Positions 9,933-61,085 of a stretch of DNA of 64,000 bases are shown here, in pieces. Source of the DNA: Bacillales bacterium UBA5026 (GTDB lineage Bacteria > Bacillota_I > Bacilli_A > RF39 > UBA660); assembly GCA_002416285.1 (NCBI GenBank), contig DICM01000034.1, positions 274 to 64,273 on the forward strand, given 5' to 3'. The first letter of the stretch is position 1; each line of letters starts with the position of its first letter. The notes under the pieces are model-generated. The model did not search any database and was not told the origin of the DNA. It worked only from the letters and a program-made list of their open reading frames with translations. Made by a program: the position numbers and the translations under genes.

Positions 9933-9955
9933 AAAAAAACTATCTTTCGATAGTT
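9933..9955 (-). terminator. Terminator after the pilus ATPase gene
   Basis: 7-bp stem AACTATC/GATAGTT with a T7 run on the minus strand, abutting the stop codon. Confidence 0.6.
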
Positions 9956-20358: not shown

Positions 20359-20957
20359 CTAAAAACTTTTTACCACAGTTGTTATATTATCATTGATATT
20401 AAACTTTTCTTTCTTTTTAATTCCATCATTTGTTAGAATTCGTCTAATCCGCTCTTGAACATAATTTTTTTCATTCGGCATATTAGTATAATATTTAATT
20501 AGCTTGATATTAGCATTATCGCATATTTGATCCACTTTGTAATCCCTTTTATGTCTTTTAAAAGTATTATGTGTGTACGATCATTGATTTCTATTAATAA
20601 AAGCAAGTCTTTGTAATCAGATGTAAATATTGCAAAGTCGATATTTCGATATAATTCATTCTGATAATGAGACCCAGGTTTATCAATAATAGTTGCCAAA
20701 TTGACTTGTGGCTGTATTACAATATCAAATTCATCTTCCAGTTTTTTGAAAATAGAGTAGAAGTAATATTCAGTTTTTGTCATAAATGGTTTTTTATAAT
20801 AATCCTTTTTTCTTGGTAGAGTAGGTGTTTTATCAATGGAATCATTTGCATAGCTAGATTTTTCTTTCCGTTTTCTTTTGTTATTTTCTGTAATATGTCT
20901 AGCAGATATAAATATCAATAAATATGAACTTACAATTAGTATAGTTATCCATAGCAT
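20359..20957 (-). pseudogene. DUF2726-family (restriction-endonuclease-like fold) membrane protein, frameshifted at an (AC)3 run near 20571-20577
   Basis: The track ORF ends ...LLLLIEINDRTH and then reads out-of-family sequence. The -1 frame continues HNTFKRHKRDYKVDQICDNANIKLIKYY... to a TAG at 20359-20361, completing the D-x-x-H...R-x-x-RD...hydrophobic C-terminal pattern I associate with DUF2726. Confidence 0.65.
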
Positions 20958-21236: not shown

Positions 21237-21335
21237 AAAAATACCTCTTTTACTATGTTATTTATTATATTAAATGTGGTAGATTTCATTTTGATAATAA
21301 CAGAGAACTATATTAGAAATCAATTTATTTTTATT

Positions 21336-21363
21336 AGTTAACATAATATAGACTAGCGAAACA
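21336..21363 (-). other. attL: hybrid dif-like site (intact XerD arm and central region, degenerate XerC arm)
   Basis: The minus strand reads TGTTTCGCTAG-TCTATA-TTATGTTAACT. The last 17 nt are identical to the dif at 29121-29148, and the XerC arm matches only 6 of 11. Confidence 0.7.
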
Positions 21364-21401
21364 AAAATGTTCTGATAAAATTTTTGAAAGGAGAATAGGG
21401 T

Positions 21402-21533
21402 ATGCTTATTGAAAAAATTACAATATCAAAATTAATTGAAATATTGCAAGAAATGAACGAACAACGAATGCATAGAAATACCGTGCTAGATGTTATAATT
21501 AAAATCAATAAAAAACAGTCAGCTTATGACTGA
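21402..21533 (+). CDS. Small prophage protein (43 aa)
   Basis: AAAGGAG RBS followed by MLIEKITISKLIEILQEMNEQRMHRNTVLDVIIKINKKQSAYD. Below the ORF-track cut-off. Confidence 0.4.
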   Translation: MLIEKITISKLIEILQEMNEQRMHRNTVLDVIIKINKKQSAYD

Positions 21534-21538
21534 CTGTT
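21514..21538. terminator. Shared hairpin between convergent small ORFs (T-run only on the minus strand)
   Basis: 9-bp stem AACAGTCAG/CTGACTGTT with a 7-nt loop. Confidence 0.55.
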
Positions 21539-21562
21539 GCAAACATGCTGCACTTAATATAT

Positions 21563-21655
21563 TTAAATAGAATTATATAATATAATTCCTATTATAATTA
21601 TCAATAGTGCTAGAAAGAAGAATTCTCGAAATTCTTTTTTTATTTTTTCAAACAT
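21563..21655 (-). CDS. 30-aa hydrophobic peptide (type I toxin-like or holin-like)
   Basis: GGAGGTG RBS followed by MFEKIKKEFREFFFLALLIIIIGIILYNSI, then the hairpin terminator. Confidence 0.4.
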   Translation of the reverse strand: MFEKIKKEFREFFFLALLIIIIGIILYNSI

Positions 21656-21720
21656 GTTGCACCTCCAATCTAGAAAAGTCTAAGACTTTTCCCCTAATCT
21701 TAAAATTCTAGATAGGAGTA

Positions 21721-21761
21721 TAGCTAGAGTGTGAGGCATTTTCCCACGAGCACTCTAGCTA
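21721..21761. other. Stable 11-bp hairpin upstream of the 30-aa peptide gene
   Basis: TAGCTAGAGTG - 19 nt - CACTCTAGCTA, unusually GC-balanced for this region. Confidence 0.5.
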
Positions 21762-21767
21762 ATAAAA

Positions 21768-21800
21768 TTTATATAAAAACCTGTACTAGCATTCTTATAT
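21768..21800. repeat. Copy A of a roughly 32-nt direct repeat (internally palindromic)
   Basis: TTTATATAAAAACCTGTACTAGCATTCTTATA. About 28 of 32 positions are identical to copy B. Confidence 0.6.
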
Positions 21801-21802
21801 CA

Positions 21803-21961
21803 TTATTTTTCTAATATTGCGAAAAAGGCATATGGCTGAAATGCATTTTTTGAAATGCTAAAATTTCCTGTTATGATTTTATATCCGTCATTAACTAATT
21901 CATTTAATTTTTTTTCGAATTGTTTTCCTTCGGTTAATAATAAAACTTTTACATCTTTCAT
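21803..21961 (-). CDS. Small prophage protein (52 aa)
   Basis: GAAAGGAG RBS followed by MKDVKVLLLTEGKQFEKKLNELVNDGYKIITGNFSISKNAFQPYAFFAILEK. Vaguely DUF4177-like; flanked by the 32-nt repeats. Confidence 0.45.
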   Translation of the reverse strand: MKDVKVLLLTEGKQFEKKLNELVNDGYKIITGNFSISKNAFQPYAFFAILEK

Positions 21962-21980
21962 TTTTCTACTCCTTTCATTA

Positions 21981-22012
21981 TTTATATAAAAATCTATACT
22001 AGCCTTTTTATA
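21981..22012. repeat. Copy B of the roughly 32-nt direct repeat
   Basis: TTTATATAAAAATCTATACTAGCCTTTTTATA, immediately after the XRE gene stop. Confidence 0.6.
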
Positions 22013-22014
22013 AC

Positions 22015-22245
22015 TTAAATATCTTTTCTTAATAAATCTTTTACTTGAAACTTTTCATTATTTCCAATGAAATAAATTTTATAACCACATTGATTAGCTA
22101 TGTTTTCTAGAGTTTCAAAATTAATGTCTGTTTTTTCTCTCTCATAATCACTTAAAGTAGTTCTTCCGATATTGACTAATTTACTTAGTTTTTCTTGGCT
22201 TAAATGACTGTTTGCTCGCATTTTTTTTATTGCCTTTCCTATCAT
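22015..22245 (-). CDS. XRE/Cro-CI-family HTH repressor of the prophage
   Basis: LSQEKLSKLVNIGRTTLSDYEREK is a canonical HTH_XRE motif. Divergent from the phage forward operon. Confidence 0.8.
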   Translation of the reverse strand: MIGKAIKKMRANSHLSQEKLSKLVNIGRTTLSDYEREKTDINFETLENIANQCGYKIYFIGNNEKFQVKDLLRKDI

Positions 22246-22274
22246 AAGTCCTCCTTTTCTTTATTGTCGCAAAA

Positions 22275-22337
22275 TTCCACAAAAAATACTTGACTTGTGG
22301 AGAAACTCGGAGTAAAATAATACATATAGATGTGGAG
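22275..22337 (+). promoter_or_regulatory. Forward phage promoter (TTGACT-17-TAAAAT) overlapped by three TGTGGAG-type half-sites
   Basis: -35 at 22290-22295 and -10 at 22313-22318. TTCCACA (22275-22281) is inverted relative to TGTGGAG (22296-22302), and a third TGTGGAG lies at 22331-22337. Confidence 0.6.
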
Positions 22338-22363
22338 TTATTCGACATCAGTAGGAGGAAAAA

Positions 22364-22645
22364 ATGAGAAAAATAAATAGTACAATAATTAATGCAGAAT
22401 TAAAACAAATACCAAACGAGAAAACAGGTGTTGTTAATGAATATACAACGGTAAAATATACCATGGAGCGAGAAAATAGCGATATTGCTGTTGGAGTTGC
22501 GATTATGGAATGCTGGATACCTAAGAATTGTCTTGATGCGATTAAAGGCTACATCATGAAACCAGTTCAAATGGAACTTAGAGAAATCTTTAATGATAAA
22601 GGTTGTAAATTTCGAATTTCAAAAATAAATAACAATGCAATTTAA
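22364..22645 (+). CDS. Prophage protein (93 aa); candidate ssDNA-binding protein by position and size only
   Basis: AGGAGG RBS. It is the first gene of the forward operon, where gene V sits in the circular map (Rep - attP - regulators - this gene - coat genes). Confidence 0.45.
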   Translation: MRKINSTIINAELKQIPNEKTGVVNEYTTVKYTMERENSDIAVGVAIMECWIPKNCLDAIKGYIMKPVQMELREIFNDKGCKFRISKINNNAI

Positions 22646-22880
22646 TGTTTTAGTTACTTACCGAAAACCGAATGGGAAAACACTTACTAGAGAATTGAGT
22701 AGCTGTGATTATAGAGTAGGGCATATCAACTCTTACGGTTGGGAAGTAATTGAGATACAAGTATTTTATCAAGGAAAATATATGCAACTAGAAACGTTTG
22801 AAAGATTACGTTACCAATATGACTATGAACGTCATAAAAAGAAGAGTATATTTTCTAAGTTTTCCAAAAAAAACAAATGA
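22635..22880 (+). CDS. Prophage hypothetical protein (81 aa)
   Basis: Its start overlaps the end of the upstream gene (22635 vs 22645), consistent with translational coupling. No recognisable motif. Confidence 0.45.
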   Translation: MQFNVLVTYRKPNGKTLTRELSSCDYRVGHINSYGWEVIEIQVFYQGKYMQLETFERLRYQYDYERHKKKSIFSKFSKKNK

Positions 22881-23423
22881 TGATAAATGTAATATGGGTG
22901 GTTAATTTTAAATGCTAGTAAAGGTTTGAAATTGAATAAAAATTATAAGTTAGTATTATAGCACTCCAATCTAGAAAATCACACAAGACTTAAATTTAAA
23001 GTACCTACTTACTATACTTTCTTAAAATCTATACAAGATTAGCAAAATACTTCGCTTATAAATAGGGTAAATAATAGGGAATTACATTATTATCAAAACT
23101 AAAAAAGGTTATCACAAAAAATCAGCAAGATATTATGCCGAGAAAATTATTTAAAAAAAGTCGTTTTTGATAAGCTGAAAGGCTAAAAAGATGCGAAACA
23201 TCAGAGGCATACCTCTTGATGATAGCAATCCACTTGTTACATCTTTAAAATCAAAAAAACGGTTACTTTTTTAAAATAAGGAATTGGAATAAATCAACAA
23301 GAAAAAACAAGATAACCTTATCGTTCAGCGAACGGGGTAAAATTTTGCTCAAGGGCTTAGCGAAGAAAAAACTTTCTACAATTTCTATAAGAAAAAGATA
23401 TTTTGAAAAGAGGGGAAAAACTT

Positions 23424-23567
23424 ATGACAGAAGTGCAGGCAACAACATTACTAGAAGAAATTACAACAATGAGAATCTTGCTTCAAGGAGTATGTGGAAT
23501 CTTAATGCTTGTGGTATTAGTAGCTGTAATATATGCCTTCTATAAGTTTTTCAAAATATTCTTTTAA
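23424..23567 (+). CDS. 47-aa coat-like membrane protein (minor or alternative coat)
   Basis: AGAGGGG RBS followed by MTEVQATTLLEEITTMRILLQGVCGILMLVVLVAVIYAFYKFFKIFF. Acidic N-terminus, TM core, basic tail. Missing from the ORF track. Confidence 0.5.
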   Translation: MTEVQATTLLEEITTMRILLQGVCGILMLVVLVAVIYAFYKFFKIFF

Positions 23568-23593
23568 AAAAGAGTGGAAAGGGGTTTTGAAAA

Positions 23594-23761
23594 ATGGAAG
23601 GAACAACTTCAATTTTTGACGGAGCTATCACATCAGCTACATTACAACCTGTTTTAGACGGTATTAAAGAATTACTACCAGTAGTAATTCCAGTAGCAGT
23701 AGGATTCTTAGCATTCCGTAAAGGTTGGTCATTTGTAATGTCAACCGTAAAAGGAGCGTAA
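23594..23761 (+). CDS. 55-aa putative major coat protein (Pf3-like architecture, no signal peptide)
   Basis: MEGTTSIFDGAITSATLQPVLDGIKELLPVVIPVAVGFLAFRKGWSFVMSTVKGA. Acidic N-terminal part, hydrophobic core of about 20 residues, and basic residues (R, K, K) in the C-terminal tail. Missing from the ORF track. Confidence 0.6.
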   Translation: MEGTTSIFDGAITSATLQPVLDGIKELLPVVIPVAVGFLAFRKGWSFVMSTVKGA

Positions 23762-23797
23762 GCTCTTCTTATAATAAAAGAAAGGACGTGAAGAAAA

Positions 23798-25423
23798 ATG
23801 AAAAAATTACTATTTGTAACAATCATTGCCTTCATGTCTTTTTTCTATATAGATAATGTAAACGCAGAAGAGATACAACATTTTACTTTGAATTATGATA
23901 ATCAAGAATTTAATGTTGATATACCTGTTAAATATTTACAAAATAATTATATTGGTACAATGTCTAAAAATAGTTCTACTGGTTCTTATCTTTTTCGATT
24001 ATTTTATGATTTTAATTATGTGGGTTTACGTTATTCAACAAGTGGAACGCAAAAAGATATTTCTTTTTATTTTAAAGATACTTCTGATGCAATAGATTCC
24101 GGTTCTGTAAATGCTTTAATTTATAATTTTACTACTAAAACATTTACAGAAGATTCTGGTGTTTATATTCCACGTTTTGCTTTAAATGATGAAATAACTG
24201 ATAATTATGTTCCCGTTGATTTTTTTATAAAATATGATAATAAAATTTATTTGGATGGGAGAAATATCAATTCTAATTTAACTTATAAAATAAATAATGT
24301 TGATTATAAAAAAGGTGATGAAGTTTTCTTTGGTGGTTCTTCAATAAGATTCGGTATTGTTGACTCAGAAACGGAAGTTATAAATGGAATAACTTATTAT
24401 AAGTCTAAAACAGTTCGTATGACATTGCAAGGAAAAAACAATACGAAATATTATTATGAATATACAACAGATAATGGAGCGAGTTGGATTACATTGTTAC
24501 TTACTCAAAAAGATTATTTTGATATTAAGTTTACTACAAATACAGTTTTGTTAGTAAGAATACGAGAACGTAATACGTTTGATGTGTTAAATGATTATAC
24601 ATTTACACTTTCCGGAATTGCGACTGACGAACTTACTAGTGAATATGAAGAAATTCCTTTAAGAGGGCATGAGGGTATTATTCTCTATGCAAAAAATACT
24701 TATCAAGATTTAATTTCTACAGTATATATGGAAACAGGAAATATCCATGTTACAAAATATTCAAATGGTAAAATTGTACAGCAAATGAGGGATATTGCAG
24801 TAGATTTTCAAGTAACATTAGGTCCACGCGATACAGATTATTATTTAATAAAAAATAATGATACAAGTATTAATACCGTATTACGCGTTTTGAAAGATAA
24901 ATTTGCTTATTATTATTTGAATGACGCGCTTAGTACGATTACAATTGAAAATCCAAATACGGGAGAGGCAGAAGTATTAGGGAGCATTTATGAGAGCGAA
25001 CAATACTATAAAGACCATGTTGAACAGGATTCGGACGTAGTTGAAAACAACTGGTTATTGAAAATCTTAAAAATGGCATTTGTTCCGGACTTAAGCGCGT
25101 TTAATAATTTAGTATCTATGTTTAACCGAAAGTTTGGAATCTTTTCACAGTTGGCAAGTACATTACCGGATTTGTTCCAGTTTGGGGGAGAAGACCCACC
25201 CGAATTTAATATGACAATTTACGGAACTACTGTTAATATTGTTGACTTTTCAGCATTTGAAATTGTACGTACATTCTTACACGGACTCATTCTCGCATTC
25301 GCATGGTATGGATTTATAAGACGTTGTTATGAACGAGCACCAGCATTTATAGGTGGATTCTTTAGCTTTGAACGTGCTGTTGGTGATATTTCTGTACCAA
25401 GTTCAAAAGGGGGTAAAAAATGA
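23798..25423 (+). CDS. Secreted 541-aa protein with a C-terminal membrane anchor (pIII-position adsorption/minor coat candidate)
   Basis: Signal peptide MKKLLFVTIIAFMSFFYIDNVNA/EE and a C-terminal hydrophobic helix LHGLILAFAWYGFIRR. Lies directly downstream of the coat-like genes. Confidence 0.55.
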   Translation: MKKLLFVTIIAFMSFFYIDNVNAEEIQHFTLNYDNQEFNVDIPVKYLQNNYIGTMSKNSSTGSYLFRLFYDFNYVGLRYSTSGTQKDISFYFKDTSDAIDSGSVNALIYNFTTKTFTEDSGVYIPRFALNDEITDNYVPVDFFIKYDNKIYLDGRNINSNLTYKINNVDYKKGDEVFFGGSSIRFGIVDSETEVINGITYYKSKTVRMTLQGKNNTKYYYEYTTDNGASWITLLLTQKDYFDIKFTTNTVLLVRIRERNTFDVLNDYTFTLSGIATDELTSEYEEIPLRGHEGIILYAKNTYQDLISTVYMETGNIHVTKYSNGKIVQQMRDIAVDFQVTLGPRDTDYYLIKNNDTSINTVLRVLKDKFAYYYLNDALSTITIENPNTGEAEVLGSIYESEQYYKDHVEQDSDVVENNWLLKILKMAFVPDLSAFNNLVSMFNRKFGIFSQLASTLPDLFQFGGEDPPEFNMTIYGTTVNIVDFSAFEIVRTFLHGLILAFAWYGFIRRCYERAPAFIGGFFSFERAVGDISVPSSKGGKK

Positions 25424-25674
25424 TAGTAACGATTATTATTAACCTTTTATTAGCACTTCCAACATTTTTACTTTCATTACTTCCGGATAATGTAGTAACT
25501 CTTCCAGATAATGTATTTAATATTATGCATGAAGTATTTTATGGGATTGGTTATGTGTTACCTATGGCTGGACTAGCTTCAATTATGGTAATTTCTACAG
25601 CGCTTATTGGAATGCAAATAACTTGGTCTATTATTTTGAGGATTAAGTCTTTTATACCAACAATGGGGGCATAG
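25420..25674 (+). CDS. 84-aa polytopic membrane protein (pVI position)
   Basis: Overlaps the upstream stop (ATGA). Has 2-3 TM segments. Confidence 0.5.
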   Translation: MIVTIIINLLLALPTFLLSLLPDNVVTLPDNVFNIMHEVFYGIGYVLPMAGLASIMVISTALIGMQITWSIILRIKSFIPTMGA

Positions 25675-25765
25675 TGCGTTGTTATTATGCGAACTTTAAG
25701 AGTTTAGTATTTGTTTATGTATTCGTGTACGTGAATAATTCCTAGGGGGTATTTTTTAAACCGCC

Positions 25766-25785
25766 ACACACGGAGTGTGTTTTAT
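25766..25785 (+). terminator. Weak internal terminator/attenuator between the structural and assembly genes
   Basis: ACACAC-GGA-GTGTGT followed by TTTTAT. Confidence 0.4.
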
Positions 25786-25811
25786 ATAGATTTTAGTTAG
25801 GAGGTAGAACT

Positions 25812-26657
25812 TTGTTAGTAGGATTTATAGGAGTATTAAAAATGCTCTTTGAATTAATCTTATGGTGTATTAAATGGGTAGGTATTGCACTTTTACCGAT
25901 TGTTATTATGATGATATATTTCTATATTCATTATTATATAAAAGGTTATCGTATGAAACCACGTACTACACCAGTTTATAAAAAACCGTCTTTCTTTAAA
26001 CGGCTTCTTATACAGTTTCCCAAGCGATTTATATTAGACCTCTTTGCACGTGACCCCGACGCATTTACGGATTACGGGGTGCATTTGGTCTGTGGAGAGC
26101 AGGGAAGCGGGAAAACTATGACGGTTGTCTATTTACTTCAAGAATATCAAAAACGGTTTCCTAAAATGAATGTGAAAACGAATTTTAATTATTTGAAACA
26201 AGACGATGAAATAACGCATTGGCGAGATATTGTATTTTCAAATAATGGAATCTATGGAGAAATTGACGTTTTAGACGAAATACAAACGTGGTTTAGTTCT
26301 ATGCAGTCACTCAATTTTCCAGTTGAAATGTTGCAAGAAATATCACAACAACGTAAACAAAGAAAAGCAATTTATGGAACAGCTCAAGTGTTTACAAAAA
26401 TAGGTAAGAGTATTCGGGAACAGACAACCTTTTTGTATCTTCCGATTACAATCGCAGGTTGTCTCACAATATGTCGAAAGTATGCCTTAAGACTTGATTC
26501 CGAGGGTCAGATTAAGGAAAAACATTTAAGACGAACATTTTTCTTTGTTCATACGGAAGAGCTTAGAAATAGCTATGATACGTATAAAAGAATCGAACGT
26601 TTGGCAAAAGACGGTTTTAAAGAGACAATTACAGATAAGATTATAGAAAGTAGGTAG
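25812..26657 (+). CDS. Membrane-anchored P-loop NTPase (pI/Zot-position morphogenesis ATPase candidate)
   Basis: N-terminal TM, Walker A GEQGSGKT, Walker B IDVLDEIQ. TTG start after AGGAGG; an alternative ATG lies at 25842. Confidence 0.6.
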   Translation: MLVGFIGVLKMLFELILWCIKWVGIALLPIVIMMIYFYIHYYIKGYRMKPRTTPVYKKPSFFKRLLIQFPKRFILDLFARDPDAFTDYGVHLVCGEQGSGKTMTVVYLLQEYQKRFPKMNVKTNFNYLKQDDEITHWRDIVFSNNGIYGEIDVLDEIQTWFSSMQSLNFPVEMLQEISQQRKQRKAIYGTAQVFTKIGKSIREQTTFLYLPITIAGCLTICRKYALRLDSEGQIKEKHLRRTFFFVHTEELRNSYDTYKRIERLAKDGFKETITDKIIESR

Positions 26658-26662
26658 ATTTA

Positions 26663-26863
26663 ATGACAAAAAAAGAATTTCTTAGTGATTTTATACATTA
26701 TTTAATTTTTACAGTTTTGTTTTTAATTTTGTTTAAAATCTTTAAGATTAAATTTTATGCCGTTGGTTATATTGTTAGTTTTGTTTTAACTTGTTCTAGT
26801 TTAGTTTATCATATAAAAATGTTATATCGTGAATATAAACTAAAAAAAGTAGAAAGTAGGTAG
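26663..26863 (+). CDS. 66-aa membrane protein
   Basis: Two TM segments. Preceded by the junction motif GAAAGTAGGTAG. Confidence 0.45.
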   Translation: MTKKEFLSDFIHYLIFTVLFLILFKIFKIKFYAVGYIVSFVLTCSSLVYHIKMLYREYKLKKVESR

Positions 26864-26868
26864 GTTTT

Positions 26869-27132
26869 ATGGTTGATGGTTTTGAATTTATAGTTTCGTG
26901 CGTTTTTTGTTTTACTTTGGGTACTGTATTTGGTGGAACTTTTGATTATAAAAAAACGTATTCAAAATATGATAAACTTAGAAATTTTTATAATTTTCTA
27001 AAAGTAAATGGTTATATTGTCGCAAAAAGCGAAAAAGAAATTGTACTTGCTTTTTTGAAAAAAGAAGAATCACAGCATGAAACAATTTGTAATGAAGTTA
27101 AATATAAAATGTTTAAGGATGATGTTTTATGA
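26869..27132 (+). CDS. Prophage hypothetical protein (87 aa)
   Basis: N-terminal TM. Preceded by the junction motif GAAAGTAGGTAG. Confidence 0.45.
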   Translation: MVDGFEFIVSCVFCFTLGTVFGGTFDYKKTYSKYDKLRNFYNFLKVNGYIVAKSEKEIVLAFLKKEESQHETICNEVKYKMFKDDVL

Positions 27133-27347
27133 TAGAAGAACGTCTGAAAGAAAAAATTGACTTGGTTTTATTCGATTATTATTTTAATAATAAATTATCA
27201 TGGTTTGATAGTAAAATTATTGATTTTTTAGTAAGAAAAAAGAAGTATAAGGATTATGCCTTAATTCGTATTAAGTATTACATACGACAAGTCAAAAATG
27301 ATAATTTTTGGAGTCTTCTAGTCTCGCTAGACCATGTGCGTGCCTAA
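27129..27347 (+). CDS. Prophage hypothetical protein (72 aa)
   Basis: Its ATG lies within an ATGA overlap with the upstream stop. Its 3' end runs into the GC-rich island. Confidence 0.4.
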   Translation: MIEERLKEKIDLVLFDYYFNNKLSWFDSKIIDFLVRKKKYKDYALIRIKYYIRQVKNDNFWSLLVSLDHVRA

Positions 27348-27405
27348 TGTTTCCGGGGTCCCAGTGGGAGTTTGGAAACATGGGCCGGAAATGGGTCCCA
27401 AAATA
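27320..27405. other. GC-rich structured island (nested inverted repeats, GGGTCCCA x2)
   Basis: ATGTTTCC (27347-27354) pairs with GGAAACAT (27374-27381). TTTCCGG (27350-27356) pairs with CCGGAAA (27385-27391). GGGTCCCA occurs at 27356-27363 and 27393-27400. Confidence 0.55.
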
Positions 27406-27427
27406 GGTTGAAAGTAGGTGATTTTGA

Positions 27428-27625
27428 ATGAAAAAGAATTTAATGCTACAACTTCTTTTAGATTTTCTATTTTTGGCTTTAGCAATCGCAATAATTCTAT
27501 GGCTTAAAAACATGTTTGTAACTATTACACTTTTATTGTATTTTGCTTTCTTACTGTTTGTTGATTTCTGTAATTTTCGGAAAGCAAAGAAGCAAAAATC
27601 GACTGTAGTTGATATAGTTGAGTAA
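27428..27625 (+). CDS. 65-aa membrane protein
   Basis: Two TM segments. Preceded by TGAAAGTAGGTGA. Confidence 0.4.
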   Translation: MKKNLMLQLLLDFLFLALAIAIILWLKNMFVTITLLLYFAFLLFVDFCNFRKAKKQKSTVVDIVE

Positions 27626-27722
27626 TTATACCAGGTCATCAAAGACTAAATACTATACAAAACAAGATAATTTACAGTATAAAAGCGATAAATTAACGTA
27701 TTTAAAAGGACTACAAGGAACA

Positions 27723-27745
27723 CCGGCGCGTCGTGAGACGCCCGG
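27723..27745. other. GC-rich hairpin with a GTGA tetraloop just upstream of the Rep ATG
   Basis: CCGGCGCGTC-GTGA-GACGCCCGG (9 bp plus one bulge) in an otherwise AT-rich context. Confidence 0.55.
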
Positions 27746-27800
27746 ATGTTCTTTACTTGATAGTAGTCTCATATCTCCACACCCCTTAAAAGTTTATTCC

Positions 27801-28748
27801 ATGAAAATAATTGAAACTGGCGATTTTATAGAAGTTTATGATTATAACGATATTAAAACTCGAAAAGATGTAAACTTTGAAAAAATTGAACGAAAAAAAA
27901 TAAAAGGAATTAAACGTAGCTTTGAAACAAAAGAAATAGGAAAGTGGGGGAGTCATTCTACATTATTAGAAAATGGTTCTATAACATTTATTAATTATCA
28001 AAAGATTCAAACGAAGTATGCTTTAGAACATATGAATAATGAAACGTTTGTAATTCGCGATTCTGTTCCAAAAGAAAAGAAAATTGAGCTGAAGAATATT
28101 CTTCGTAGTAAGTTTGCTATGGAACGTATTGTAAAAGCAAATATGAATGAATTTAAAACATTTATCACATTAACATTTGCAGAGAATATCATTAATATTG
28201 ATGAGGCAAATAAAAAGTTCGACACATGGCGAACTCATATAAAAGCATTAAAAAGAGACTTTAAATATGTCTGTGTTCCGGAATTTCAAAAGTTAAGAGA
28301 ACGAAAAACCGGATATGCAGTAGTACATTATCATTTACTAACTAATTTAGACATAATTAAAGACTCGGATATTATTATATCACAAAAAGAATTTACAGAA
28401 AAACAGTTGCTAGAAATGAGCGGACGGCAACGTAGTAAATGTTATGATGTACGTTATTGGAATTATGGCTTTGTTAGAGTCGATACATTAAAAGATATGA
28501 ATGTAGTAGGGTATATATCAAAGTACATGACGAAAGACATAGATAATAGGCTTTGGGGAAAACGACGTTATCTATATAGTCAAAATTTAAAAAAACCTAG
28601 TGTATCATATTTAAACTTTAGTAATATTGAAGATTTTAAACATTATGTAAATAATTTGAATGGCTTTGAATTGAATTTTGAAAAGGTGTATGCTGATAAA
28701 TTCGGACAGGCAATAGAATATAAAGAATACAAGAAAGTAGGCGCTTAA
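27801..28748 (+). CDS. HUH rolling-circle replication initiator (Rep)
   Basis: Motif I FITLTF, motif II (HUH) VVHYHLLTN, motif III GYISKYMTKD. The track ORF extends to a TTG at 27618, so the N-terminus is uncertain. Confidence 0.7.
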   Translation: MKIIETGDFIEVYDYNDIKTRKDVNFEKIERKKIKGIKRSFETKEIGKWGSHSTLLENGSITFINYQKIQTKYALEHMNNETFVIRDSVPKEKKIELKNILRSKFAMERIVKANMNEFKTFITLTFAENIINIDEANKKFDTWRTHIKALKRDFKYVCVPEFQKLRERKTGYAVVHYHLLTNLDIIKDSDIIISQKEFTEKQLLEMSGRQRSKCYDVRYWNYGFVRVDTLKDMNVVGYISKYMTKDIDNRLWGKRRYLYSQNLKKPSVSYLNFSNIEDFKHYVNNLNGFELNFEKVYADKFGQAIEYKEYKKVGA

Positions 28749-28942
28749 TGAAAAAAATGCTGTTATTAATTGTAATTATCATTTTATTCACCGGATGTAC
28801 TTTTAAAAAATGTATAAAGTCTCATGAAATAGAAACTACTTGTACGAAATATACTTATATATCAAACGGAAAAACACTTTTTGCCGTTCCGGTTGATAAT
28901 TACTCATATGTTAAAACTGTTTGTGATGAATATGAAAAATAA
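28748..28942 (+). CDS. Small prophage lipoprotein (64 aa)
   Basis: Lipobox ILFTGC. Preceded by AGAAAGTAGGCGC; its ATG abuts the Rep stop (TAATG). Confidence 0.55.
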   Translation: MKKMLLLIVIIILFTGCTFKKCIKSHEIETTCTKYTYISNGKTLFAVPVDNYSYVKTVCDEYEK

Positions 28943-28959
28943 AAGGAGAAAAATTCAGT

Positions 28960-29103
28960 ATGTATAAAATCGAAATGCAAGACTTAACTACAAAAGAGAT
29001 ATTTAGTCGAGTTACAGATAGTCTGTACAAAATAGAACGTCTCAAAAAGAGATGTAGATATTCTAAGAAAGTTAAAATAAGAGCTATTACAAAGTTAACA
29101 TAA
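28960..29103 (+). CDS. Small basic prophage protein (47 aa)
   Basis: AAAAGGAG RBS followed by MYKIEMQDLTTKEIFSRVTDSLYKIERLKKRCRYSKKVKIRAITKLT. Last gene before dif. Confidence 0.4.
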   Translation: MYKIEMQDLTTKEIFSRVTDSLYKIERLKKRCRYSKKVKIRAITKLT

Positions 29104-29120
29104 ATTTAAGAATATATATT

Positions 29121-29148
29121 AGTTAACATAATATAGATTATCGGAAGT
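29121..29148 (-). other. dif: Chromosomal dif site (XerC arm - 6-nt centre - XerD arm), serving as prophage attR
   Basis: The minus strand reads ACTTCCGATAA-TCTATA-TTATGTTAACT. This matches 24 of 28 positions of the B. subtilis dif as I recall it (ACTTCCTAGAA-TATATA-TTATGTAAACT). It lies at the point where the gene-strand bias switches. Confidence 0.8.
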
Positions 29149-29877
29149 TATTGATGTGCTTACATTTAAGTGCTATTATATTGCTTTATACTATAAAAAT
29201 TAGCTTTTAAATCGTTCAATTATTCCAATATAATACTTAATATTATGTTTATCCATTATGATATGCTTATCTAGAAATATGTACTAAATAATATAAATGT
29301 CTTGTTCAGTTAAATAATAATATAAATAATAATATTTCTATATTCAACAATTCATTATATTTACTACATATACACTTAGTCATACATTTCATTGTCCTAA
29401 ATCCGTTTATTAGAATATTTTTTCAATTTCAATATAAATTATTACTTCTATCCTATAATTAAAATAATTTGAGCTGATAAGTTATTCACTAAGATCTTTC
29501 TCGAATGCTCTCAGAACGCCTATCAAAACACTTTAATATAAAATACTCAAATACCTTGCTACACACAATGAGGTAAAATAATAAAATTAACTTATAATTA
29601 AATTATAAAGTAGGGGAAATAGATTGGAAAAGAGCAGAAAAAAATTTTAACTATTCCCTACTTTTTAAATTAATAACTTAACATAATTTATTTGTATCTA
29701 AAGCAGATTATTTATCTTATCTATAAATCTATCTATATTGTTTTTAAAACAAATAGGAAGGAGATTTAAGCTTGTTTATTAGATCTACTCTACCCTAGTT
29801 TCAATCGTTTCTTAACTCCCCTACTTGTAATTTTTCATAATTCGTCATTCTTTTTCATATTCTTTAATGGTGATAAT

Positions 29878-30621
29878 ATGGACAAGATTATGTTTCCGTT
29901 TATTCTAACAAGTTTAGCTGGTTTATCAACAATGATTGGGTGTATCTTTCTTTATATAAAGCCTAAAAAAGAAAATCATGTCATTATCAGTGGTCTATCA
30001 TTTGCCGCTGCAGTAATGATAACTGTTTCTTTTACAGATTTATTACCTGAATCTTTTAGCTTACTTAAAATGATTTATAAACCATTTCCAATGGTAATTT
30101 TAGTGTTAATATCATTAAATATTGGAATGTTGATATCATTCTTATTGGATAAATATCTTCCAAACCAGGAGGAATCTCTTTATCGTGTAGGTATTATCTC
30201 TATGTTAGCTATTATTATTCATAATATTCCTGAAGGTATTGCAACCTATATGGCTGGATCAACCAATACTAATTTAGGAATTACATTAGCTGTTGCTATC
30301 GCATTACATAATATTCCTGAAGGTATCAGTATTTCTATTCCAATTTATTATGCAACAAAAAGTAGGAAAAAAGCACTATTATATACTTTTATATCCGGAT
30401 TATCAGAACTATTTGGTGCTATATTTACCTATTTATTTTTGAAATCATTTATTAATAATCAAATACTAGGATTCCTGTTTGCGGGAATCGCAGGTATTAT
30501 GTTACATATTGCACTTTATGAATTATTACCAACTGCTTGGAAATATAAGAATAAAAAATTAGTATATTTATTTTTTCTTATAGGGTTCTTATTTATGCTC
30601 ATTAATCATATTATTTTTTAA
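29878..30621 (+). CDS. zupT: ZIP-family zinc transporter ZupT
   Basis: The HNIPEGIA / HNIPEGIS motif occurs twice, with about 8 TM segments. Confidence 0.85.
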   Translation: MDKIMFPFILTSLAGLSTMIGCIFLYIKPKKENHVIISGLSFAAAVMITVSFTDLLPESFSLLKMIYKPFPMVILVLISLNIGMLISFLLDKYLPNQEESLYRVGIISMLAIIIHNIPEGIATYMAGSTNTNLGITLAVAIALHNIPEGISISIPIYYATKSRKKALLYTFISGLSELFGAIFTYLFLKSFINNQILGFLFAGIAGIMLHIALYELLPTAWKYKNKKLVYLFFLIGFLFMLINHIIF

Positions 30622-30651: not shown

Positions 30652-30852
30652 TTAACGAAGTTCGAATGAATGATCGTCATTGTCATCTAATTCAAATGAA
30701 TGAGAGTCATTATCAAATCCAATTGTTTTATCTTGTTTGTTTGTAACTTTATTGGATTTTGAACTATTCGTTACATTTGAACGATTACAGTTTGTTACAT
30801 TATTGTTATTTTTGTTTGTAACATTAGCATTATTCTTATTTGCTTTTTTCAT
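30652..30852 (-). CDS. Asn-rich repetitive small protein (66 aa)
   Basis: GGGTGA RBS. Contains NVTN x3 plus KVTN, and a tandem D-rich DSHSFEL / DDHSFEL C-terminus. Confidence 0.5.
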   Translation of the reverse strand: MKKANKNNANVTNKNNNNVTNCNRSNVTNSSKSNKVTNKQDKTIGFDNDSHSFELDDNDDHSFELR

Positions 30853-33495: not shown

Positions 33496-34392
33496 CTATT
33501 CTCCATGTGGATGGTAAGTTTGATAATTTTGCTCTAAAAAATGGTCTGATAAGTGAGTATAAATCTGTGTAGTTGAAATATCGGTATGTCCCAGTAATTC
33601 CTGAACACTTCTTAAATCAGCGCCATTTTCTACAAGATGGGTTGCAAATGAATGCCGTAAAGTGTGTGGTGACAATTCTTTTTTTATGCCTTGCTCTGTT
33701 GCAATCTGTCTCACTATTTTAAAAAATGCTTGTCTTGTCATCGAACTTCCTCGACTACTCAAAAACAAATCATCATTAAGCTCTCTTTTCAAAAGTTGAC
33801 TACGATAATCCACAAGATAGATTGATAGGGCTGCTAAAGCATAATCGCCAATTGGAATAATCCGTTCTTTATTTCCTTTACCGAATACTTTTACAGTCGC
33901 CATCTCTAAATTCACATCATGAACCTTTAAATGAATTAGCTCACTAATTCTAAGTCCAGAAGCATACATCAATTCAAGCATGGTTTTATTTCTAAAATCA
34001 TATTTGGTTTTTAATGGAAAACTTAATAATTTATCTACTTCCTCATGCGTAAGCACTTTAGGAAGTACCTTTTTTAGTTTTGGTTGAGCTATCCCATCAA
34101 TTGGGTTTTCCTTTGTAATTTTTTCAATCTTCAAATATTTATAAAATTGTCTTAGTACTGTTAATTTATGTGCAATACTTCGCTCATCATTTTTCATTAA
34201 ATCCAAGTACTTAAGGTAGTTTCGAATAACTGTTTTATCAATTTGTTCAAGTGTGTTCAAATTCAATTTATCTAAGAATTCAATAAATTGATCCAAATCG
34301 TTTTCATACGATTTTTTTGTATTCACACTGTATTTGCGATCAATTAATAAATAATTTAAAAAGTCTTGTTCCAATTCTTTTATCATATTCAT
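33496..34392 (-). CDS. xerD: Tyrosine site-specific recombinase, XerD/XerC type
   Basis: 298 aa. Catalytic pattern: GLRISEL (Arg), HTLRHSFATHL (H-x-x-R), LLGHTDISTTQIYTHL (His and Tyr). Confidence 0.85.
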   Translation of the reverse strand: MNMIKELEQDFLNYLLIDRKYSVNTKKSYENDLDQFIEFLDKLNLNTLEQIDKTVIRNYLKYLDLMKNDERSIAHKLTVLRQFYKYLKIEKITKENPIDGIAQPKLKKVLPKVLTHEEVDKLLSFPLKTKYDFRNKTMLELMYASGLRISELIHLKVHDVNLEMATVKVFGKGNKERIIPIGDYALAALSIYLVDYRSQLLKRELNDDLFLSSRGSSMTRQAFFKIVRQIATEQGIKKELSPHTLRHSFATHLVENGADLRSVQELLGHTDISTTQIYTHLSDHFLEQNYQTYHPHGE

Positions 34393-36088: not shown

Positions 36089-36859
36089 TTATATCGTATG
36101 AGTCAAAAATGAAAGTAAAGAATTAAAATCAATTTTTAAGAAAAACAGAATCATCGCACCAACTGCCAAAAAAGGGCCGAATGGAATAATATGATCTTTT
36201 TTCTTATATAGAATAATTAAAGATATCGGTAATCCAATAAACGATGCAATGAATATAGCAATGATTGTCATCTCATATCCAAGAACTAACCCAAATAGAA
36301 ACATTAACTTAATGTCTCCTCCCCCCATCGATTCTTGCTTGAATAGAAAATCACCAAACTTTTTCAATAAAAACATAATAAGAAAAGCAGCAACACCATT
36401 CAACAGTGCGATTCCCAATTGATTCCATCCACTTTTTAAGAATATTTCAATTGATAACATTACTACTGATACAATCAATATCTCATCTGGAATAATCATT
36501 GTTTGATAATCACTAATAATTATTATTAATAATGTAGAAACAAATGTTAGTGCAATTGCTAGATCAATTGAAAAACCAAAAATAAGATATGATAATGAGA
36601 ATAACAAGCCTGTTGTAAGTTCAAAAATTGGATAGAACAAAGAGATTCCTTGCTTACAGTTTTTGCACTTTCCTCCTAAGAATAAATAAGAGAATACAGG
36701 TATTAATTCACTTGCTCCAAGGCGATGTCCACAATTTGGACAATGGCTCGGCGGGGATACAATTGATTCCCCTTTTGGTAAACGATACCCTACTACATTG
36801 TAAAAAGAACCTAATACAATGCCAAAGAGAAATAAAACGACTGTGTAATAAATTTCCAT
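36089..36859 (-). CDS. Prepilin peptidase (A24 family, PilD/ComC)
   Basis: Zinc-ribbon CPNCGHRL...CKNCKQ, and GGGDIKL containing the second catalytic Asp. Confidence 0.88.
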   Translation of the reverse strand: MEIYYTVVLFLFGIVLGSFYNVVGYRLPKGESIVSPPSHCPNCGHRLGASELIPVFSYLFLGGKCKNCKQGISLFYPIFELTTGLLFSLSYLIFGFSIDLAIALTFVSTLLIIIISDYQTMIIPDEILIVSVVMLSIEIFLKSGWNQLGIALLNGVAAFLIMFLLKKFGDFLFKQESMGGGDIKLMFLFGLVLGYEMTIIAIFIASFIGLPISLIILYKKKDHIIPFGPFLAVGAMILFFLKIDFNSLLSFLTHTI

Positions 36860-36897
36860 TTAGCCACTCCTTAATAAGAAAAGGAATTCTCATTCCT

Positions 36898-38784
36898 TTA
36901 ATAACTTTGAACTGTTTGATACATATTAAACATTGGAATAATAATAGCGAGAATAATAAATCCTACAATTACTGTTAAAAAAATGGTAATGAATGGTTCA
37001 ATAACAGTTTTAATACGAGTAACAGAGTCTTTATGTAATCCCTGATAGTATGAGGATACTTTTCCCATCATCTCTGGAAGTTCTCCTGTTTTTTCACCAG
37101 TTACCAACATTTCATATGCCGGTATTGGAAACGCCCAATGATCTTTAAACGCTGCTGAGATTTTATCTCCACGAGCTAAATTCGTAATCGTATCTAAGAT
37201 TAACATTTTATAAATTTCATTGTTGGTAATTTTATTTAGGATCTCCATACTTTCTGTAATGAAGACATTATGACTTAATAATGAACTAAATGTTTTTGTA
37301 AACATTGTTACTTCATTATAGATAATAGTTTGTCCAATAAATGGTAAATGCATGGCAAACCACTGGCAAATTGTTCTAAAGATTTTGACGTTTCTATATA
37401 GATAAACGAAAATTGCAAGGAAAATAACTAATCCTACAAAAATCCATATAATATATGATTTTAAGAAAGCACTTATAGCGATTACTAATTTCGTAAATGC
37501 TGGAATCTTAGAAGCATCCATACTTTCATAAATCTCAACAAATTGTGGTATAACGAACATTAAAATAAATGTGATAACGGCAACAGACATAATAAAGACG
37601 ATGGAAGGATACATCATAGCTGTAATCATCTGTTTTCTCGTTTGTTCACTTTCAGTATAATATTCTGCCATATCATCTAGAACTTCTGGTAGTTCTCCTG
37701 TCATTTCCGCGGTTTTAATCATATTGATTAACAGCCTTGGAAAGGCAACATTCTGTTTTAATAAAGCATCACTGAAATTTTCTCCCATTGTAAGATCGTA
37801 AATAACGCTTTTGAATATTTTCTGATAAGATTTTTTCTTATATTGTCTAGATAGAATTCGAAGTGATTCTACAAGTGGGATACCAGCCTTGATATAAGTT
37901 GATAACTGAGTTAAAAAGAAAATTAAATCTTTTGTTTTAAAGCGGGTGTGATTAACAGAATCTCCACCGTGTAAAAAACGAATCCACCAACTTGTTTTAA
38001 TGCTATATACTTCAAATCCTTCACTTAGTAAGAAGGAGTGAACTTCAACTTTTGAGAATGCCTCAAAATATCCTGTTACAACGTTCCCTTCTGGATCTTT
38101 AGCAATATATTGATATAGTAACTTTGTATCACTTTTCTCTGCATCTTCACTATTGAAATCGATCAGTAATGCTTCTTTCTGCATAGTTTCTTTATTACGA
38201 CGATTTTTTGCAAATGAATTGTTTTTTAATTTATCAGCAATTCTTTTGGGAAAATCGGAAATTGAAAGCCATGTTTTATGCAGATTAGCTCCCATTCCAT
38301 GCCCTTTAATTCTTACCTTTTTATCAGAGTAAATATCAATTGGCTTCTGTAACTCTTCAGCTCTTTTTATTTTAGCAAGTTCTTGTTTTCTTCTTCGTTC
38401 CTCAATTGCTGCTTTTTTAATATTTTCTCGTTCTTCTCGTTGAATTTTCTCCAATTCCTCAAAACTCAATTTTCTCGCTTTTGTAGAAACAGGTTCAATT
38501 GTCTCTGCAAAGAAAATGTCATCTTTACGGAACCTTGATATTCGTTGTGTTTTCTTTTGTGCAAATGCTTTGTTTGACCGTACTGCAGGAATTAACAAAT
38601 AAATAAGAAATAAGAATCCCTTATAAATATATTTTAATAATTTCCAAATTCCTTCTGATAGCGAAATAATTGTAAATGTAATTCCTAAAAATACATACTT
38701 CACAAATAAAAAAGGAATGATCAATATTGTTTTCACAATCCTATACACCCAAATACATGGTATTAAATATATTGGTTTGTGCAT
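36898..38784 (-). CDS. Type II secretion system F / PilC-family platform protein with a roughly 230-aa N-terminal extension
   Basis: The C-terminal ~400 aa carry two T2SSF repeats (MIKTAEMTGELPEVLDDMA and MLVTGEKTGELPEMMGKVS). The N-terminal part has TM segments plus a K/E-rich stretch. Confidence 0.8.
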   Translation of the reverse strand: MHKPIYLIPCIWVYRIVKTILIIPFLFVKYVFLGITFTIISLSEGIWKLLKYIYKGFLFLIYLLIPAVRSNKAFAQKKTQRISRFRKDDIFFAETIEPVSTKARKLSFEELEKIQREERENIKKAAIEERRRKQELAKIKRAEELQKPIDIYSDKKVRIKGHGMGANLHKTWLSISDFPKRIADKLKNNSFAKNRRNKETMQKEALLIDFNSEDAEKSDTKLLYQYIAKDPEGNVVTGYFEAFSKVEVHSFLLSEGFEVYSIKTSWWIRFLHGGDSVNHTRFKTKDLIFFLTQLSTYIKAGIPLVESLRILSRQYKKKSYQKIFKSVIYDLTMGENFSDALLKQNVAFPRLLINMIKTAEMTGELPEVLDDMAEYYTESEQTRKQMITAMMYPSIVFIMSVAVITFILMFVIPQFVEIYESMDASKIPAFTKLVIAISAFLKSYIIWIFVGLVIFLAIFVYLYRNVKIFRTICQWFAMHLPFIGQTIIYNEVTMFTKTFSSLLSHNVFITESMEILNKITNNEIYKMLILDTITNLARGDKISAAFKDHWAFPIPAYEMLVTGEKTGELPEMMGKVSSYYQGLHKDSVTRIKTVIEPFITIFLTVIVGFIILAIIIPMFNMYQTVQSY

Positions 38785-38903
38785 ACAAACACCATCCAAT
38801 CTCTCTCTATTCTTTTACATTACTATAAGTATAACACATTCTATCATATTTTGTAAAACATTTTTTGCTCGATTCATATAATATTCTAGAAAGGAGTATA
38901 GGT

Positions 38904-45486: not shown

Positions 45487-45538
45487 TTGAAAAGAAATTC
45501 ATAAAAAGGAAAAGAGAATAGAAAAACAAAATAATAAT

Positions 45539-50742: not shown

Positions 50743-50832
50743 TTTCTCACTCCTTCTTACTTTACTACACGAAAAAGAACTTAACCACTTAGTCAAGTTC
50801 CTTTATCATAAATCTTACAATACTTTAGAGGG

Positions 50833-61008: not shown

Positions 61009-61085
61009 TGGTAGCGACGGGGAGATTCGAACTCTCGACCTACCGGGTATGAACCGGTTGCTCTAGCCAGCTGAGCTACATCGCC
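61009..61085 (-). tRNA. tRNA-Met (CAU), elongator type
   Basis: GGCGATGTAGCTCAGCTGGCTAGAGCAACCGGTTCATACCCGGTAGGTCGAGAGTTCGAATCTCCCCGTCGCTACCA folds as a cloverleaf with an encoded CCA. It closely resembles the B. subtilis elongator tRNA-Met as I recall it. tRNA-Ile2 (lysidine) cannot be fully excluded. Confidence 0.88.

Follow-up and report, generated by a model that had tools for sequence, protein, structure and literature searches.

Elements that hijack host Xer recombination at dif, known as Xer-exploiting integrative mobile elements (IMEXs), have shaped pathogen evolution in Proteobacteria, as the cholera toxin phage and the gonococcal island illustrate, and their mechanisms have been worked out in that group only. 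Reviews and recent papers list IMEXs in Proteobacteria only (PMC5357621, PMC3025954, PMC9226527), and in the open-access literature we found no prior description linking IMEXs or XerCD exploitation with Bacillota; a C. tetani paper that matched on 'exploiting Xer' deals with tailed prophages carrying serine recombinases and has no bearing on the present case. We analyzed a 64-kb stretch of contig DICM01000034.1 (assembly GCA_002416285.1, Bacillales bacterium UBA5026), hereafter the window, to whose positions all coordinates refer. It contains an integrase-less element of 7,785 bp (21353-29137), with about 18 plausible open reading frames (ORFs) and an inovirus gene set, that sits inside dif and regenerates a perfect dif. 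Very probably, this element is a temperate inovirus prophage inserted at dif by Xer exploitation.

Several described systems invite comparison. VGJφ-type phages of Vibrio, along with VEJφ and the Xanthomonas phages Cf and φLf, are autonomous inoviruses of about 7.5 kb that have no integrase and carry a single double-strand dif-like attP; once they have integrated at dif, a functional dif and a hybrid site remain (PMC4246890). In TLCφ and the gonococcal genetic island (GGI), attP combines one bona fide arm with a dif-identical spacer, and the integrated element has a crippled site on one side and a functional dif on the other (PMC5357621, PMC9226527), the crippled flank having been proposed to limit excision (PMC9226527). 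CTXφ, too, is a filamentous phage that resides at dif and lacks an integrase; it has an XRE-like repressor and divergent promoters and integrates as folded single-stranded DNA from two inverted attP sites. The pathway of both CTXφ and VGJφ is XerC-first (PMC4246890). On the Gram-positive side, the prophages of Enterocloster and Hungatella (PMC10061712) and the Firmicutes inoviruses of Roux et al. 2019 (PMC6813254) resemble the present element in size (6.5-8.5 kb), in their spore-forming gut hosts, in their direct repeats and in the hallmark pI-like ATPase. The Enterocloster paper describes its prophages as 'flanked with direct repeats' and mentions neither Xer, dif nor an integrase (PMC10061712), and the text and supplements of Roux et al. 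mention neither Xer nor dif and record such proviruses under 'non-canonical att sites' (PMC6813254). A preliminary description of the window, made from its letters, knew of no characterized case of Xer exploitation in a Gram-positive endospore former; this agrees with the open-access literature, in which inovirus prophages as such were already known from Gram-positive Clostridia (PMC10061712, PMC6813254).

The ends of the element are marked by a 21-nt repeat, TATTAGTTAACATAATATAGA, present in exactly two copies in the window (21332-21352 and 29117-29137; at least two matches in 0 of 100 shuffles), and a motif-free search for repeats bracketing the ATPase gene returned the same 21332/29117 pair. 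The right copy belongs to a complete dif, attR (29121-29148, plus strand), in which the XerD arm comes from the phage and the XerC arm, TTATCGGAAGT, from the chromosome, with the spacer between them. On the minus strand (29148..29121) it reads ACTTCCGATAA-TCTATA-TTATGTTAACT, with an 11-6-11 layout, and no second complete dif occurs in the window. This site is identical to the B. subtilis dif, ACTTCCTAGAATATATATTATGTAAACT, at 24 of 28 positions, and its XerD arm to that of E. coli, TTATGTTAAAT, at 10 of 11, both comparisons being made with the experimentally defined reference sequences given in PMC3025954. Cumulative GC skew of the window peaks at about 29 kb, with values of +0.063 and -0.096 for the left and right 10-kb flanks (z = 6.1), which places the complete dif at the expected replication terminus. 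The left copy belongs to a hybrid dif-like site, attL (21336-21363, plus strand), which shares with attR the XerD arm AGTTAACATAA and the spacer TATAGA (6/6 identical) and then continues into a phage-derived, non-dif arm, CTAGCGAAACA, at the place of TTATCGGAAGT. That arm matches the window's own XerC arm at 6 of 11 positions and the family consensus at 5 of 11, and lacks the inner TTAT. The preliminary description had proposed all three features, namely, the paired repeats around a 7.8-kb block, the complete dif on the right and the hybrid site with a degenerate XerC arm on the left, and each of them held up. A tRNA attachment site was ruled out, the sole tRNA gene of the window lying at 61009-61085.

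The identity of the site as dif is further documented across the host family. Using MnmA, encoded 2 kb left of the element, we retrieved 80 species-level loci (best identity, 77%), all from uncultured gut Bacilli labeled Bacilli, Tenericutes, Clostridium sp. CAG:710 or CAG:1193, or Ca. Faecisoma, the latter listed in the NCBI taxonomy as Mycoplasmatota incertae sedis. Immediately after mnmA and a conserved gene of 270 aa, 55 of the 80 loci contain a dif-like site with at most 6 mismatches to that of the window, compared to 3 of 200 loci after shuffling. The family consensus, AGTTAACATAA-TATATA-TTATAGGAAGT, is identical to B. subtilis dif at 26 of 28 positions, and the GC skew falls across the site in all 31 empty loci with at least 5 kb on each side (z = 6-9 at occupied loci). 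Given that the window encodes the germination protease GPR (3.3e-115), SpoIIM, YfhO and type IV pilus/competence genes, it is reasonable to regard the host, which belongs to an uncultured gut lineage of Bacilli, as a putative Gram-positive spore former.

Empty sites exist both in the same species and in a sister species; the insertion is therefore precise, recent and polymorphic within two species. The empty-site contigs came from among the long contigs that carry variants of the 270-aa flanking protein clustered at 90% identity. Four same-species contigs (L255-L258), whose identity to the window is 97.6-99.9% across some 20 kb with exactly the same gene order, carry a single dif, caatttatttttatt-AGTTAACATAA-TATAGA-TTATCGGAAGT-tattgatgtgcttac, whose flanks are the two outer flanks of the window; the window aligns to these contigs up to 21361 and then again from 29117, with the overlap confined to the site. 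A further contig, L263, encodes the window's exact variant of the 270-aa protein next to an empty dif, and the 119 nt downstream of that dif match the window from 29149 on with 100% identity and the phage side with 26%. All five contigs thus join the left and right flanks of the window through one intact dif, just as the preliminary description had predicted for an empty locus. In the sister species, with identical flanks, one locus is occupied (L249, on the same contig as L002) and five are empty (L250-L254), the occupant being a phage, 81% related, that has a hybrid site at one end and a perfect dif at the other.

These empty sites bear on the alternative under which the block is vertically inherited, fixed (domesticated) DNA beside dif, with the repeats as mere relics. 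In keeping with that scenario, the closest other species (L002) has a related element at the same locus, with an overall divergence similar to that of the flanks. However, the precisely empty sites in the same species and with the same flanking-protein variant refute it, the sister species is polymorphic as well, and dif is empty in most species of the family. Moreover, the dS of the Rep-side module, 0.08-0.58, is far below that of host genes, 1.5-2.5, indicating that this module was exchanged between phages after the hosts diverged. We accord fixed inheritance next to no probability. None of the refuting outcomes named in the preliminary description was seen.

The interval 21353-29137 carries an inovirus (Tubulavirales) gene set, comprising a pI/Zot ATPase, coat-like and membrane proteins, an adsorption-type protein and a rolling-circle Rep, and its size fits the 4-12 kb range of inovirus genomes. 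The morphogenesis ATPase (281 aa; 25812-26657, plus strand; likely start at 25842, as in P0001) contains the motifs GEQGSGKT and VLDE and an N-terminal transmembrane helix, unlike classical pI. Over 95% of its length it shares 42% identity with the protein annotated as Zot in bajarodino virus 76; it is 30-34% identical to ATPases of porcine 'Inovirus sp.' and matches the Zot-like phrog_197 at 1.5e-5. Its homologues at E <=1e-5 number 886, several with a precomputed Pfam Zot domain; relatives lie on circular contigs (L091, L117, L136, L153, L160, L173 and L176), and near relatives were found on circular, phage-sized contigs from faecal viromes. The HUH rolling-circle Rep (376 aa; 27618-28748, plus strand) matches PF23343 REP_ORF2-G2P at 3.8e-16 (59.6 bits; cutoff, 27.8) and phrog_3419 at 2.5e-19, and displays the HUH and Tyr motifs FITLTF, HYHLL and YISKYMTK. 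Profile and homology searches thus put both proteins, as the preliminary description had assigned them, in inovirus-type families: the ATPase groups with the Zot/pI proteins that circular gut inoviruses encode, and Rep with the ORF2/G2P family.

The scan of all element ORFs of at least 30 aa against Pfam and PHROGs yielded no match to integrase, resolvase, transposase, lysis, capsid, tail or secretin families, as had been anticipated, and the larger ORFs of sister elements matched no integrase, resolvase or transposase family either. The proposed gene content (XRE, coat-like, pIII- and pVI-position proteins, ATPase and Rep) stands, whereas the proposed number of about 20 genes does not. The closest deposited phage genomes are bajarodino virus 76 (PQ006119.1; circular, 8.8 kb, rodent faeces) and the porcine 'Inovirus sp.' genomes (MT1353xx); these are circular, 4-9 kb in size and similar to the present element in module order, but bajarodino virus 76 has a different Rep and additional SprT-like and RstB-like genes. 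A dif-like site of the type found in the present host family was not found in PQ006119.1.

From the two ends of the element, attP can be reconstructed as ...GAATATATATT-AGTTAACATAA-TATAGA-CTAGCGAAACA-AAAATG..., an architecture that departs from each of the described classes. As in VGJφ-type phages, a small autonomous inovirus without an integrase appears to have used a single double-strand dif-like site and left behind one functional dif and one hybrid site. The attP of VGJφ, however, has both XerC and XerD arms, with dif homology on the XerC side of the spacer only, whereas here the spacer is identical at 6 of 6 positions and the XerC arm is unrecognizable, so that an attP of the VGJφ type is ruled out. 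Furthermore, VGJφ-type hosts are Gammaproteobacteria; the present host belongs to Bacillota, a secretin is missing, and the ATPase topology is different. With TLCφ and GGI, the element shares one bona fide arm, the dif-identical spacer and the pairing of a crippled site with a functional dif. Those elements, in contrast, keep the XerC arm and lose the XerD arm; the mirror image is seen here in all 9 elements of this kind, and it is a phage-derived XerD arm, instead of a XerC arm, that the new dif acquires. An attP of the TLCφ/GGI type is ruled out by this opposite arm conservation. CTXφ has in common with the present element the dif location, the lack of an integrase, the XRE-like repressor and the divergent promoters, but no inverted attP sites are present here; within the element, the best inverted 28-mer mismatches at 11 of 28 positions, which rules out a CTXφ-type attP.

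The nine elements are that of the window and eight others (L002, L032, L061, L070, L072, L090, L162 and L278) that share the layout hybrid site-XRE-ATPase-Rep-dif in constant relative orientation, such that the related blocks, too, occur at dif with the same kind of repeats. The XerD arm is AGTTAACATAA in the window, L002, L032, L072 and L278, AGTCAACATAA in L070, AGTTTACATAA in L090 (hybrid end only) and ACATGACATAA in L162, which comes from another host and has a skew switch of z = 8.8; in L061, it is TTACAACATAA at the hybrid site and ATGCAACATAA at dif. The spacer is TATAGA in the window, L002, L090 and L278, and TATCAA, TATACA, TATGTA, TATATA and GATATA in L032, L061, L070, L072 and L162, respectively. 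The outer arm of the hybrid site is CTATTAGTGAA in L002, TGATTATAAAG in L032, TAATATCCACT in L061, ATTAAAGGAGG in L070, AAATGGCAATT in L072, TGCATAATATA in L090, TTTATTATAAC in L162 and TTTACCGAATA in L278. In each element, then, the XerD arm and spacer match the variant of its own host, the non-dif outer arm is different each time, and the similarity between attP and dif stops exactly at the boundary between the spacer and the XerC arm. The inner TTAT, at least 98% conserved in real sites, is missing from all seven hybrid arms compared. The two XerD arms of L061 differ in their outer bases (TTAC vs ATGC), which fits recombination between attP and attB and not target duplication.

L278 is an IMG/VR entry (IMGVR_UViG_3300027800_000110) trimmed at its repeats, with the dif-like repeat TTAGTTAACATAATATAGATT at both ends, and L297 is likewise delimited by the dif-like repeat. 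Part of the IMG/VR inoviruses with a 'non-canonical att site' are probably unrecognized IMEXs, and the present finding would account for that share of the catalogued proviruses. A scan of 155 metagenome and IMG/VR relatives with the XerD arm of the host family gave mostly random matches and was replaced by the motif-free search for flanking repeats. Two candidate loci are incomplete: L075 has Rep and ATPase genes near a dif-like site in non-matching orientation and without a second site, and the contig of L017 ends before any second site.

Other ATPase relatives integrate differently. A large serine recombinase is encoded in L003 (Tissierella), L087-L089, L091 and L130 have their own tyrosine recombinases, a circular 8.6-kb genome being among these tyrosine-integrase carriers, and L151 and L156 have tRNA att sites of 45-60 nt; this variety of solutions indicates that the integration module is swapped freely within the phage group. 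In L032, Rep belongs to another family (Rep_OBD/RepB) while the architecture is the same, from which we conclude that the mode of integration is independent of Rep.

The comparison also bears on the alternative that the element integrates by machinery of its own, either through nicking and joining by the HUH Rep at a dif-like sequence or through a novel recombinase or directionality factor, encoded by one of the small ORFs, that targets dif. HUH enzymes can mediate integration in other systems, about ten ORFs of the element have no family assignment, and an attP without a XerC arm is awkward for canonical XerCD synapsis. Against this, the crossover falls within the 17 bp of XerD arm and spacer and the similarity ends at the XerC-arm boundary in 9 independent elements; the unrelated Rep of L032 comes with the same architecture; only the ATPase, Rep and the pIII-like protein are long enough for a typical recombinase; and the integrase-bearing relatives use other att sites, such as tRNA genes. 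Self-sufficient integration therefore appears improbable to us.

Under the favored reading, that of Xer exploitation, a single double-strand attP composed of a perfect XerD arm, a host-identical 6-bp spacer and a non-dif outer arm would recombine with the host dif. The presumed catalysts are the host XerD, encoded outside the element (33496-34392, minus strand; TIGR02225 XerD equivalog, 351.5 bits vs 329.6 cutoff), and an unseen XerC. Recombination would regenerate dif on the Rep-proximal side (29121-29148), thereby preserving chromosome dimer resolution, and the repressor-proximal side (21336-21363) would be left with a crippled hybrid that lacks the XerC arm, which should disfavor Xer-driven excision. 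With the spacer identical at 6 of 6 positions, both strand exchanges are chemically possible. We favor a XerD-first exchange because attP conserves only the XerD arm and the spacer; this order would be the mirror image of the XerC-first order of CTXφ and VGJφ. The second exchange might be carried out by weakly bound, cooperatively recruited XerC or be replaced by replication. In the phage cycle, the HUH Rep would replicate the genome from a structured intergenic region, the Zot-type ATPase would extrude it without a secretin, and the XRE repressor would control lysogeny. Two further direct copies of the XerD arm precede the regenerated dif on the plus strand, one 51 nt upstream with 1 mismatch (29070-29080) and one 28 nt upstream that is exact (29093-29103), overlapping the end of a 47-aa ORF; 0.1 exact copies are expected by chance per 64 kb. 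In the L002 phage the exact copy is kept (L002 13115-13125), while the stretch that separates it from the core site is not. Speculatively, these copies might serve as accessory XerD-binding sites.

Several observations count against Xer exploitation by a complete phage. An attP without a recognizable XerC arm has no characterized precedent, which makes the catalytic pathway a conjecture, and a second Xer paralogue or XerC gene was not found in the 64-kb window, so that the participation of two recombinases is an assumption. TLCφ brings along XafT, an activator of XerD, whereas no XafT-like Xer activator (DUF3653/XafT) was matched among the element ORFs in Pfam or PHROGs. The window ATPase scores 15.9 bits against Pfam Zot, below the cutoff of 20.3 that sister-element ATPases pass, and its identity accordingly rests on homologues. 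The virions, the single-stranded DNA form and the Xer dependence of the element are inferred from sequence. Finally, the exact proteins of the window are known from one assembly only, and circular-junction k-mers of the window and L002 phages (for the former, the predicted junction is GAATATATATT-AGTTAACATAA-TATAGA-CTAGCGAAAC) are absent from IMG/VR. Exact-protein look-ups for Rep, the 541-aa protein, Zip and P0001 returned no match, and homologues were used instead.

The lack of a free circular copy in the IMG/VR k-mer search and the single assembly are also what would be expected if the element, although of inovirus ancestry and dif-integrating, formed no particles, being a defective prophage, a satellite or a plasmid-like IMEX in the manner of TLCφ or RS1. 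The short ATPase with its unusual N-terminal anchor and the unconfirmed single-stranded DNA-binding (SSB) protein point the same way. However, the replication, structural and morphogenesis modules are intact and collinear with the L002 phage, and the dN/dS values relative to L002 (0.07 for the ATPase, 0.21 for Rep and 0.39 for the pIII-like 541-aa protein, the fastest-evolving gene of the element, with 45% amino acid identity) indicate purifying selection. In addition, the insertion is recent and strain-polymorphic, and close relatives of the ATPase occur on the circular faecal-virome contigs mentioned above. We consider a particle-less element to be unlikely, about as much so as integration by the element's own machinery.

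Tentatively, the nine sites may represent a fourth class of IMEX attP, with the XerD arm only, in which a XerD-first exchange would proceed without an FtsK-type or phage-encoded activator, with XerC or replication resolving the Holliday junction, and which would be common at the dif sites of gut Bacillota; this generalization is considerably less secure than the assignment of the element itself. An activator would be dispensable because SpoIIIE/SftA do not gate the Firmicute XerD (RipX) as FtsK gates the proteobacterial XerD; SpoIIIE and SftA have been reported not to activate Firmicute Xer recombinases directly (PMC5357621). If such a class exists, it would extend to about 10% of the host-family species, the independent case L162 and, possibly, the palindromic-site group L124/L132/L157, and such phages may drive dif-proximal inversions and gene capture, as of DUF2726.

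The element places the IMEX strategy in a new phylum, Bacillota, with a new attP architecture, and extends a known paradigm as opposed to founding a new category. Recurrent, strain-polymorphic, integrase-less filamentous phages at dif suggest that the strategy also operates in cells without an outer membrane, and an attP with the XerD arm only would be a natural substrate for studying Xer control in Firmicutes. The finding also offers a simple rule for delimiting such prophages in metagenome-assembled genomes from the gut, namely, to search the region where the skew switches for a XerD arm and spacer that occur twice.

The remaining genes of the element can be described from left to right. The first, a 43-aa ORF (21402-21533, plus strand), has no family match and lies in a region that aligns to the L002 element, and a 52-aa ORF (21803-21961, minus strand) has only a weak match to phrog_17689. 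The candidate repressor of the XRE/Cro-C1 helix-turn-helix type (22015-22245, minus strand; PF01381 at 8.7e-13, phrog_3 transcriptional repressor) is divergent from the plus-strand operon, with promoter-like sites in the 118-nt gap between them. Two small ORFs of 93 and 81 aa (22364-22880, plus strand) occupy the position of replication/ssDNA-binding genes; they match no Pfam or PHROGs family, and a word-index search for homologues returned the query alone, while the 93-aa protein is kept in the L061 and L072 elements. A single-sequence AlphaFold (AF2) model made as a test of the SSB-position ORF reached a pLDDT of 62.5, too poor for use. The adjoining 522-nt non-coding region (22881-23402, plus strand) shows strong single-stranded DNA folding (z = -3.96; 0 of 100 shuffles equally stable), is 77% conserved with L002 and is a candidate origin or packaging region.

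It is followed on the plus strand by a 54-aa minor coat-like protein with a C-terminal hydrophobic helix (23403-23567; 56% identical in L002) and a 55-aa major-coat-like protein with an acidic N-terminus, the hydrophobic core LLPVVIPVAVGFLAF and a basic tail (23594-23761), homologues of which (30-65% identity) are encoded about 2 kb upstream of the ATPase gene in many relatives, circular genomes included. The 541-aa protein at the pIII position (23798-25423, plus strand) is predicted to be secreted and C-terminally anchored, with a signal-peptide-like N-terminus ending in VNA-EE and a C-terminal transmembrane helix; it is a candidate receptor-binding protein, and pIII-like counterparts are present in all sister elements, among them L032, L061, L070, L072 and L162. 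An 84-aa polytopic membrane protein (25420-25674, plus strand; kept in L002 and L003) takes the pVI position. Between the ATPase and Rep genes lie four small ORFs of 66, 87, 72 and 65 aa (26663-27625, plus strand), two of them membrane-like, and Rep is followed by a 64-aa lipoprotein-like ORF and the 47-aa ORF (28748-29103, plus strand; 92% and 83% identical in L002), the former with weak matches to Cor-like superinfection-exclusion proteins.

A set of more distant ATPase relatives (43-48% identity) on long human-gut contigs, L124, L125, L132 and L157 (about 5.3-13.8 kb) and L115 (4870/12727), is flanked by near-palindromic 11-6-11 sites and a hybrid copy, the sites being ATTTCGCATAA-TCAAAG-TTATGCGAAAT in the group of four and ATTGCGTAAAA-TAAAAA-TTTTACGAATT in L115. 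L125 looks like a tandem array. We did not accept these sites as dif, the GC skew showing no switch within the 20-kb loci (z from -2.9 to +2.0).

In the host chromosome, xerD lies 4.3 kb from dif in the window, 2-8 kb from it in most relatives (L007-L086) and also beside empty sites. This synteny resembles the linkage of single-recombinase XerS/XerH systems, yet the site here is a classical 28-bp dif. Type IV pilus/competence genes are found near the terminus as well (9954-11288, 36089-38799, 43474-46204 and 49102-50796), encoding a T2SSE ATPase, T2SSF, a prepilin peptidase, ComEC, ComEA and a 564-aa protein whose N-terminus bears a methylation motif. Filamentous phages commonly use type IV pili as receptors, and the host pilus is a candidate receptor for this phage.

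In the species of the window, a DUF2726 gene (20499-20957, minus strand) belongs to the chromosome, where it separates the 270-aa gene from dif; strains with an empty site have it as well. In the sister species it lies inside the phage (L002 5732-6283), and it recurs in an IMG/VR inovirus (L087 551-802), a distribution suggesting that genes move between the phages residing at dif and the chromosomal DNA next to it. The segment comprising dif and the adjacent Zip transporter gene (29121-30621) is inverted between lineages when the window is compared with L007-L086: relative to mnmA, dif is in the plus orientation in the window, L002, L012, L023, L046 and L068 and in the minus orientation in most others, and the phage orientation flips along with it. 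The roughly 730 nt between dif and the Zip gene (29149-29877) have a GC content of 24%, no ORF of at least 30 aa, no Rfam match and no DNA-level alignment with the sister species. Beyond the Zip gene, a 66-aa ORF (30652-30852, minus strand) is rich in NVTN/SNVTN motifs, contains a 30-nt tandem DNA repeat (30661-30715) and is kept at 66 aa in the same-species contigs.

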